Below, piece after piece: positions 1 through 895 of a DNA stretch of 895 nucleotides. Under the pieces are notes generated by a model that was not told the DNA's origin, did no database searches, and worked only from the letters and a program-made list of their open reading frames with translations. Position 1 is the stretch's first letter, and the number at the start of each line of letters is the position of its first letter. Origin of the DNA: Escherichia coli (lineage in GTDB: Bacteria; Pseudomonadota; Gammaproteobacteria; Enterobacterales; Enterobacteriaceae); the NCBI RefSeq assembly GCF_003334405.1, contig NZ_QOWM01000051.1, one strand, 5' to 3'. The translations under genes were made by a program, and so were the position numbers.

Positions 1-895
1 TGCGGTCCGTCTTCTCCGTCAGCCTGCCGTATTCATCGTGGCGGTAGACATAGTGCGCATCCTCCGCGATGCGGTTATCCGGCCACACTGTGAGTGTACT
101 GTCCGGGTGCAGCTCCGGGTCCGGCAGCCGGTTGCCCGCCGGGTCCGTGGCATACGGGATGCGGATGTCCAGGTCTGGTGCGAGGGTGCGCACACTCTCC
201 AGCCTGCCCGTGGCGCTGTAGCCGTATTCCCGCGTCTGTCGCGGGCCGCTGATGCGCACCAGGTCGCCGTTGTCACTCCACCCGTAGTCACGGTCATATA
301 CCAGGCTGTTCAGGTGCTGGCTCTGTAACTGGCCTGCGGGGGTGTATGTGCTGGTCAGTTCGTATGCGGCATTACTGCCTGCCATGCTGCCGAAGCTGCG
401 CACCGTCTCACGGTGCAGCCTGTCCCGCGTATACTCGACCAGCGGCGTCCCGCCCAGCTTCATTCCCGCCAGGTAACCGCTGCCATACGTCAGCCACTCC
501 ACCGGCGGCAGGCTGTCCGGCGTGACGCGGTTTGCCAGCCCCTGCTCGTTGTATGCGTGTTTCGTCTCATGCTGCCACAGCAGTTCCCCCGTCTCCGGGT
601 TCTCCACCGTCTGGCATTCGCCGGTCAGGCGGCCTTTATCGTCATAGCCATAGTGGACGGCAACACGGTGGCCTTCGCTCAGGTGGCTGATGTCTGTCAG
701 CCAGCCGTGGCCATCATACTGCCACTGCTCTGCCGGTTCGCCGTTCACCGTGCGGTGAGTGATACGGTCCGATTCATCGTAGTACCAGAGGATGACAAGT
801 CCCTCATCCTCACTCTGTGTGAGTTTTCCGGTCAGGTCATAATGATAACGTTGCGTCCGCCCGTCAAAGCCGCCCTGCTGTACCAGCCGGTCCAG
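1..895 (-). CDS. rhs: Internal fragment, partial at both ends, of an Rhs-family YD-repeat core protein (polymorphic toxin, T6SS-associated or contact-dependent class). Complete codons occupy 2..895; position 1 is the first base of the next codon.
   Basis: Hand translation of the reverse complement starting at position 895 gives 298 codons with no stop: [298 protein letters not shown]. It contains repeated YD-repeat motifs (Y-x-Y-D-x-x-G-R/K-L-T) at roughly 20-25 residue spacing and is rich in Tyr (21), Asp (25), Gly and Trp (7), as expected for an Rhs/YD shell. From memory it closely matches the conserved E. coli-type Rhs core (rhsA/B/C/D family). The paralog cannot be assigned because the cores are near-identical and the distinguishing C-terminal tip is not in the window. 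No database search was run. Confidence 0.92.

Follow-up and report, generated by a model that had tools for sequence, protein, structure and literature searches.

The window, by which the whole 895-nt stretch of DNA under analysis is meant, is almost certainly an internal segment of rhsD, a classical rearrangement hot spot (Rhs) element of Escherichia coli, with the codons running from position 895 to position 2 on the minus strand. The gene has long been known and its RefSeq annotation is correct; the finding is an ordinary one, with nothing new in the window, and in biological terms the locus is a textbook gene of E. coli K-12. The value of the case is one of quality control only: an ORF finder for which both gene boundaries are required overlooks any gene that exceeds the window in length and reports off-frame and antisense ORFs in its place, above all when the gene is GC-rich. 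ORF tracks of short windows taken from long GC-rich genes are misleading.

Identity with rhsD and extent of the gene

A megablast search of the window against 5,426 complete E. coli genomes returned rhsD of E. coli K-12 MG1655 and of many further E. coli strains at 100.0% identity over 895/895 nt. Among the matches listed at 100.0% over 895 nt, 20 of 20 carried the annotation "rhsD: rhs element protein RhsD", with MG1655, C600 and other K-12 derivatives included. Of the 5,426 genomes, 3,863 contain a place where at least 80% of the window is covered. In total, the same search located Rhs core copies at 20,470 places in 3,871 genomes (median 5 per genome), and the identity of these related copies to the window extended from 100% down to ~79%, a spread that accords with the multicopy nature of the Rhs core.

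In the MG1655 reference (NZ_CP032667.1, locus L001), the window corresponds to L001 6001-6895, as confirmed by exact string comparison, and is located inside the rhsD CDS, which occupies L001 4607-8887 on the minus strand and runs for 4,281 nt (1,426 codons) from an ATG to a TAA without being interrupted by a stop. The peptide of the window is identical to residues 665-962 (of 1,426) of the K-12 RhsD protein (WP_000014739.1, RhsD-E subfamily of Rhs elements), the codon phase 895..2 is exactly that of the gene, and no difference from K-12 rhsD occurs within the window. The segment can be described as follows:

2..895, minus strand: internal rhsD coding segment for RhsD residues 665-962, in the middle of the YD-repeat core, without a start or stop codon (exact match; NCBIfam NF041261)

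The sequence-only reading, made from the letters of the window, had predicted that extension of the contig would disclose a single ORF of about 4 kb or more, and the MG1655 context contains exactly such an ORF in the 4,281-nt, 1,426-codon gene. The contrary outcome that it had named, stop codons just outside the window leaving an ORF of only ~300 codons, did not occur in this context. In the source strain, rhsD is probably intact as well, judging from the identical public copies.

Another Rhs member, or a truncated or pseudogenised copy such as an rhsE-like relic or a recombinant core, is a very unlikely source of the window; the frame would then be the same, and the gene might not be an intact ~4.3-kb ORF. 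Such an origin would be compatible with the abundance of Rhs cores (the 20,470 places in 3,871 genomes, median 5, given above), with the assignment of rhsD and rhsE to one subfamily (PMC2935791) and with the presence in MG1655 of a truncated Rhs pseudogene just downstream of rhsD (L001 3489-4175). The identity values argue against it, however, as all of the 20 full-length matches listed at 100.0% were annotated as rhsD, and the identity of other copies and lineages is lower, at 97.6%, 95%, 90% and 79%. Since the match is complete over 895/895 nt and other copies score lower, rhsD of a K-12-like strain is the simplest reading of the window.

A partial match was also noticed in E. coli strain S1 (NZ_CP010226.1 1988064..1988497; H35), where only window positions 76..510 are matched, at 93.3% identity, and the features annotated in the region read "hypothetical protein | arylamine N-acetyltransferase". 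This arrangement suggests an Rhs core relic beside an unrelated gene.

Reading frames in the window and selection on the sense strand

The minus-strand frame over 2..895 (codons 895..2) is open throughout, with no stop in 298 codons, and the stops counted in the six frames of the window amount to 7 (+0), 1 (+1), 12 (+2), 0 (-0), 10 (-1) and 16 (-2). Under a mononucleotide model, 8.7 stops are expected per 298 codons and the probability that this frame is open is 1.5e-4, while any of the six frames was fully open in 29 of 5000 dinucleotide-preserving shuffles. A chance of ~0.6% for an open frame of 298 codons is unusual in 63% GC DNA and suggestive, but not conclusive alone; it is homology that settles the coding status of the minus-strand frame.

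The ORF listing of the window contains 12 ORFs of at least 20 aa, none of which (0/12) is in the minus-strand 895..2 frame. The two longest, 38..328 on the plus strand (96 aa) and 19..297 on the minus strand (92 aa), are both off-frame. The rhsD frame is absent from the list because it extends past the window on both sides, the gene neither starting nor stopping inside. When the full MG1655 locus was subjected to the same ORF listing, the 1,426-aa ORF was reported, and RefSeq annotates rhsD too; the "invisible" ORF is therefore an effect of the 895-nt cut. The sequence-only reading was right on each of these points: it had described the minus-strand frame 2..895 as stop-free (0/298) and missed by the ORF track, had assigned the two small ORFs to other frames, and had warned that the track taken at face value would mis-annotate the region as two small proteins, for which there is neither a family match nor good conservation. 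The stretches concerned are as follows:

19..297, minus strand (frame offset 1): spurious off-frame ORF of 92 aa, with GC at codon positions 1/2/3 of 0.45/0.78/0.66, out of register with the coding bias
38..328, plus strand: spurious antisense ORF, 96 aa in the window, being the 3' end of a 353-aa antisense ORF at L001 5267..6328
329..895, plus strand: antisense open stretch of 189 codons, which runs off the window end and is thus unlisted; judged spurious

Read by the sense codons, GC at positions 1/2/3 in the window is 0.66/0.45/0.78, which fits the minus 895..2 frame. Four homologous segments with 80-96% identity were aligned to the window, and their substitutions at the third position of the sense codons were counted:

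L005, 95.6% identity: 29 of 39 substitutions at sense codon position 3
L004, 94.5% identity: 34 of 49 substitutions at sense codon position 3
L002, 91.4% identity: 55 of 75 substitutions at sense codon position 3
L003, 79.9% identity: 110 of 175 substitutions at sense codon position 3

Indels in the four homologues are limited to lengths of 15 and 21 nt, each divisible by three, and none of the four has a stop in the sense frame. The frame is under purifying selection.

The plus-strand frame with offset 1, which is antisense to rhsD and in codon register with it, is interrupted only once in the window, by the stop at 326..328. Of the open stretches on either side, 2..325 and 329..895, the latter had gone unmentioned in the earlier reading.

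A real overlapping antisense gene opposite rhsD, in the form of the 353-aa ORF that ends at window position 328, of a 240-aa ORF over window 413..895, or of both, is extremely improbable. The single stop in 895 nt of the in-register antisense frame could be taken in its favour, as could the presence of both ORFs in the full locus, where 329..895 contributes to the 240-aa antisense ORF at L001 6413..7135, and the largely open state of the frame in homologues with at least 91% identity. The scarcity of antisense stops is, however, in our preferred reading, to be expected because the third position of the sense codons has 78% GC. No family match was returned by the NCBIfam search of the off-frame and antisense translations, the 329..895 stretch is broken at its codon 40 in the 80%-identical homologue L003, start codons vary among the homologues, and the sense frame alone accounts for the pattern of substitutions. 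The start codon of the ORF at 38..328 is replaced by GTA in L005 and by ATA in L003, and two stops interrupt the ORF in L002; this ORF is judged to be a spurious by-product of the GC-rich sense gene.

The literal version of the ORF track, two small hypothetical proteins encoded by 19..297 (minus, 92 aa) and 38..328 (plus, 96 aa), is scarcely conceivable, for although both ORFs possess a start and a stop codon, neither has an NCBIfam match, their translations are rich in Arg, Ala and Thr, as we would expect of GC-rich DNA read out of frame, their GC by codon position is out of register, they overlap each other and the well-supported rhsD frame, and in the homologues the plus-strand ORF loses its start or gains two stops, a stop appears at codon 33 of the minus-strand ORF (in L003, 80% identical) and the substitutions track the rhsD frame. 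The off-frame and antisense ORFs were accordingly rejected as genes, being without a family match and each broken or deprived of its start in at least one diverged homologue.

A non-coding RNA in the window was rejected as well; the Rfam search at a permissive E-value threshold gave only a snoRNA match at chance level, whose 19.6 bits fell short of the gathering score of 47 (E 0.21).

Rhs family models and the YD-repeat shell

The peptide of the minus-strand rhsD frame belongs to the Rhs family. NCBIfam NF041261 ("RHS element core protein", an equivalog model) matched it with 651.3 bits and an E-value of 3.4e-195, in a colinear alignment of peptide residues 1-298 on model positions 669-965 of 1261. 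The curated cut-off of this model, 2000 bits, applies to the whole protein and is out of reach for a fragment alone; full-length RhsD reached 2787.7 bits over model positions 1-1261, above the cut-off. Among the models searched, NF041261 is regarded as the decisive one for the window peptide. The description of the window as an Rhs core fragment, whose minus-strand translation should match Rhs/YD-repeat proteins, is thereby confirmed, and the lack of a significant Rhs match, which would have spoken against it, was not encountered.

The three HMM checks that the earlier reading had suggested differed in what they could tell about the window. TIGR01643 (YD repeat) passed its cut-off with 22.8 bits against 15.8, matching peptide residues 19-58, and gave 158 bits in 7 stretches over full RhsD. 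Pfam RHS_repeat (PF05593) was marginal, with five weak matches in the window of which the best had an i-E of 0.0017 and none an i-E of 0.001 or less; the weakness reflects the degeneracy of the repeats along this stretch of the core, and 7 matches at i-E ≤0.001 occur in the N-terminal 664 residues of RhsD. TIGR03696 (Rhs-associated core domain) had no match in the window peptide (residues 665-962) and was uninformative there, as the domain falls outside the window, at residues 1181-1258 of full RhsD (82 bits). Two canonical YxYDxxGxL motifs were found in the window by regular expression, with their codons checked by eye:

821..847, minus strand: YD-repeat motif YHYDLTGKL, RhsD residues 681-689, within the TIGR01643 match at peptide 19-58 and a Pfam RHS_repeat match at peptide 19-52
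626..652, minus strand: YD-repeat motif YGYDDKGRL, RhsD residues 746-754, within the Pfam RHS_repeat match at peptide 60-92 (i-E 0.0017)

Solved structures of Rhs proteins are matched by the window as well. Residues 1-260 of the window peptide align by sequence with residues 571-826 of the Tse5 chain (PDB 8cp6_B) at an E-value of 2.6e-23, and further solved Rhs proteins, namely 8qja, Tse15 (8uxt/8uy4), Rhs1 (7q97) and 8h8a, were matched by sequence with E-values from 6.9e-14 to 8e-07. In Tse5, RhsA and Rhs1, a beta-sheet made of the YD repeats winds spirally into a hollow cocoon around the C-terminal toxin, and the core terminates in a conserved aspartyl-protease motif that frees the toxin fragment from the polypeptide (PMC10684867). 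The window encodes the middle of the YD-repeat shell and has no catalytic, targeting or toxin function of its own.

By homology to the solved Rhs proteins, residues 665-962 of RhsD would form beta-hairpin repeats in the wall of such a hollow beta-cocoon. The cocoon may enclose the variable C-terminal domain of RhsD, a putative toxin annotated as DUF4329 at ~residues 1259-1426, and the aspartyl-protease motif DPxG-x18-DPxG at the core end (residues 1232-1258) would detach this domain. The cocoon fold, the encapsulation and the autocleavage are thus proposed for RhsD on the strength of its homologues and the literature.

Tse5 of P. aeruginosa, a pore-forming Rhs toxin of the T6SS whose cocoon structure has been solved (8cp6/9i9y), has a YD-repeat shell homologous to that of RhsD, and the two proteins have the same order of parts: an N-terminal domain is followed by the YD-repeat shell, the protease plug (DPxG..DPxG) and a C-terminal toxin that varies (PMC10684867). 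They are nevertheless distant homologues, the tip being a pore-former in Tse5 and DUF4329 in RhsD. Different from Tse5, which has a PAAR-like N-terminus and is delivered by the T6SS, RhsD features DUF6531, only a non-significant PAAR match and no annotated vgrG in the 6-kb flanks of its gene. Photorhabdus Rhs1 (7q97), Acinetobacter Tse15 (8uxt/8uy4), 8qja and 8h8a also share the shell match with the window; they are more distant than Tse5, and their N-terminal delivery domains and toxins are different.

Termini, neighbourhood and delivery of RhsD

The core of RhsD ends with PLQQIDPMGL at residues 1249-1258, and the pair DPMG-x18-DPMG occupies residues 1232-1258, both outside the window. The C-terminal tip that follows was identified as DUF4329 (Pfam E 1.3e-37) at ~residues 1259-1426, which corresponds to L001 4607..5110 (minus strand) and is AT-rich. 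The claim that a large Rhs toxin gene runs through the window therefore holds as far as the Rhs gene, rhsD, is concerned, but the window itself covers shell only, with the toxin tip (~1259-1426) lying outside it.

The GC content of the window is 62.8%, compared with 60.1% for the whole of rhsD and 49.9% for the flanks. In 300-nt bins along rhsD, the core has 61-70% GC and the last ~700 nt of the gene have 31-46%. This composition agrees with the Rhs architecture of a GC-rich core and an AT-rich core-extension (PMC2935791).

At the other end of the protein, the N-terminal 664 residues (L001 6896..8887, minus strand) contain DUF6531 at residues 46-123 (E 2.6e-18), and the Pfam search of these residues for PAAR gave only a non-significant match, at residues 3-20 (i-E 0.15). 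The neighbours of rhsD in MG1655 are ybbP/ybbA upstream and ybbC downstream, and the annotation of the 6-kb flanks includes neither vgrG nor any T6SS gene. To our knowledge, K-12 has no T6SS gene cluster. Judged from these domain matches and annotations, T6SS delivery of this RhsD copy is not supported. PMC7043789, which deals with Salmonella rhs, contains no data specific to K-12 RhsD, and "rhsd" in that paper stands for rhs^delivery.

The ybbC gene, encoding a YbbC/YhhH family protein, shares the strand of rhsD and is located downstream of it at a distance of 39 nt, a position that fits a candidate immunity gene. Downstream of rhsD-ybbC, RefSeq annotates L001 3489..4175 (minus strand) as a truncated "RHS repeat-associated core domain-containing protein" pseudogene without an N-terminus, and this is followed by two small hypothetical genes on the same strand (small ORFs at L001 3018..3508). 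On the basis of position and annotation only, the rhsD tip, ybbC and the orphan Rhs fragment would correspond to the usual layout of toxin, immunity gene and orphan tip. The pseudogene and the small ORFs would represent an orphan-tip layout with candidate immunity genes, left by C-terminal displacement.
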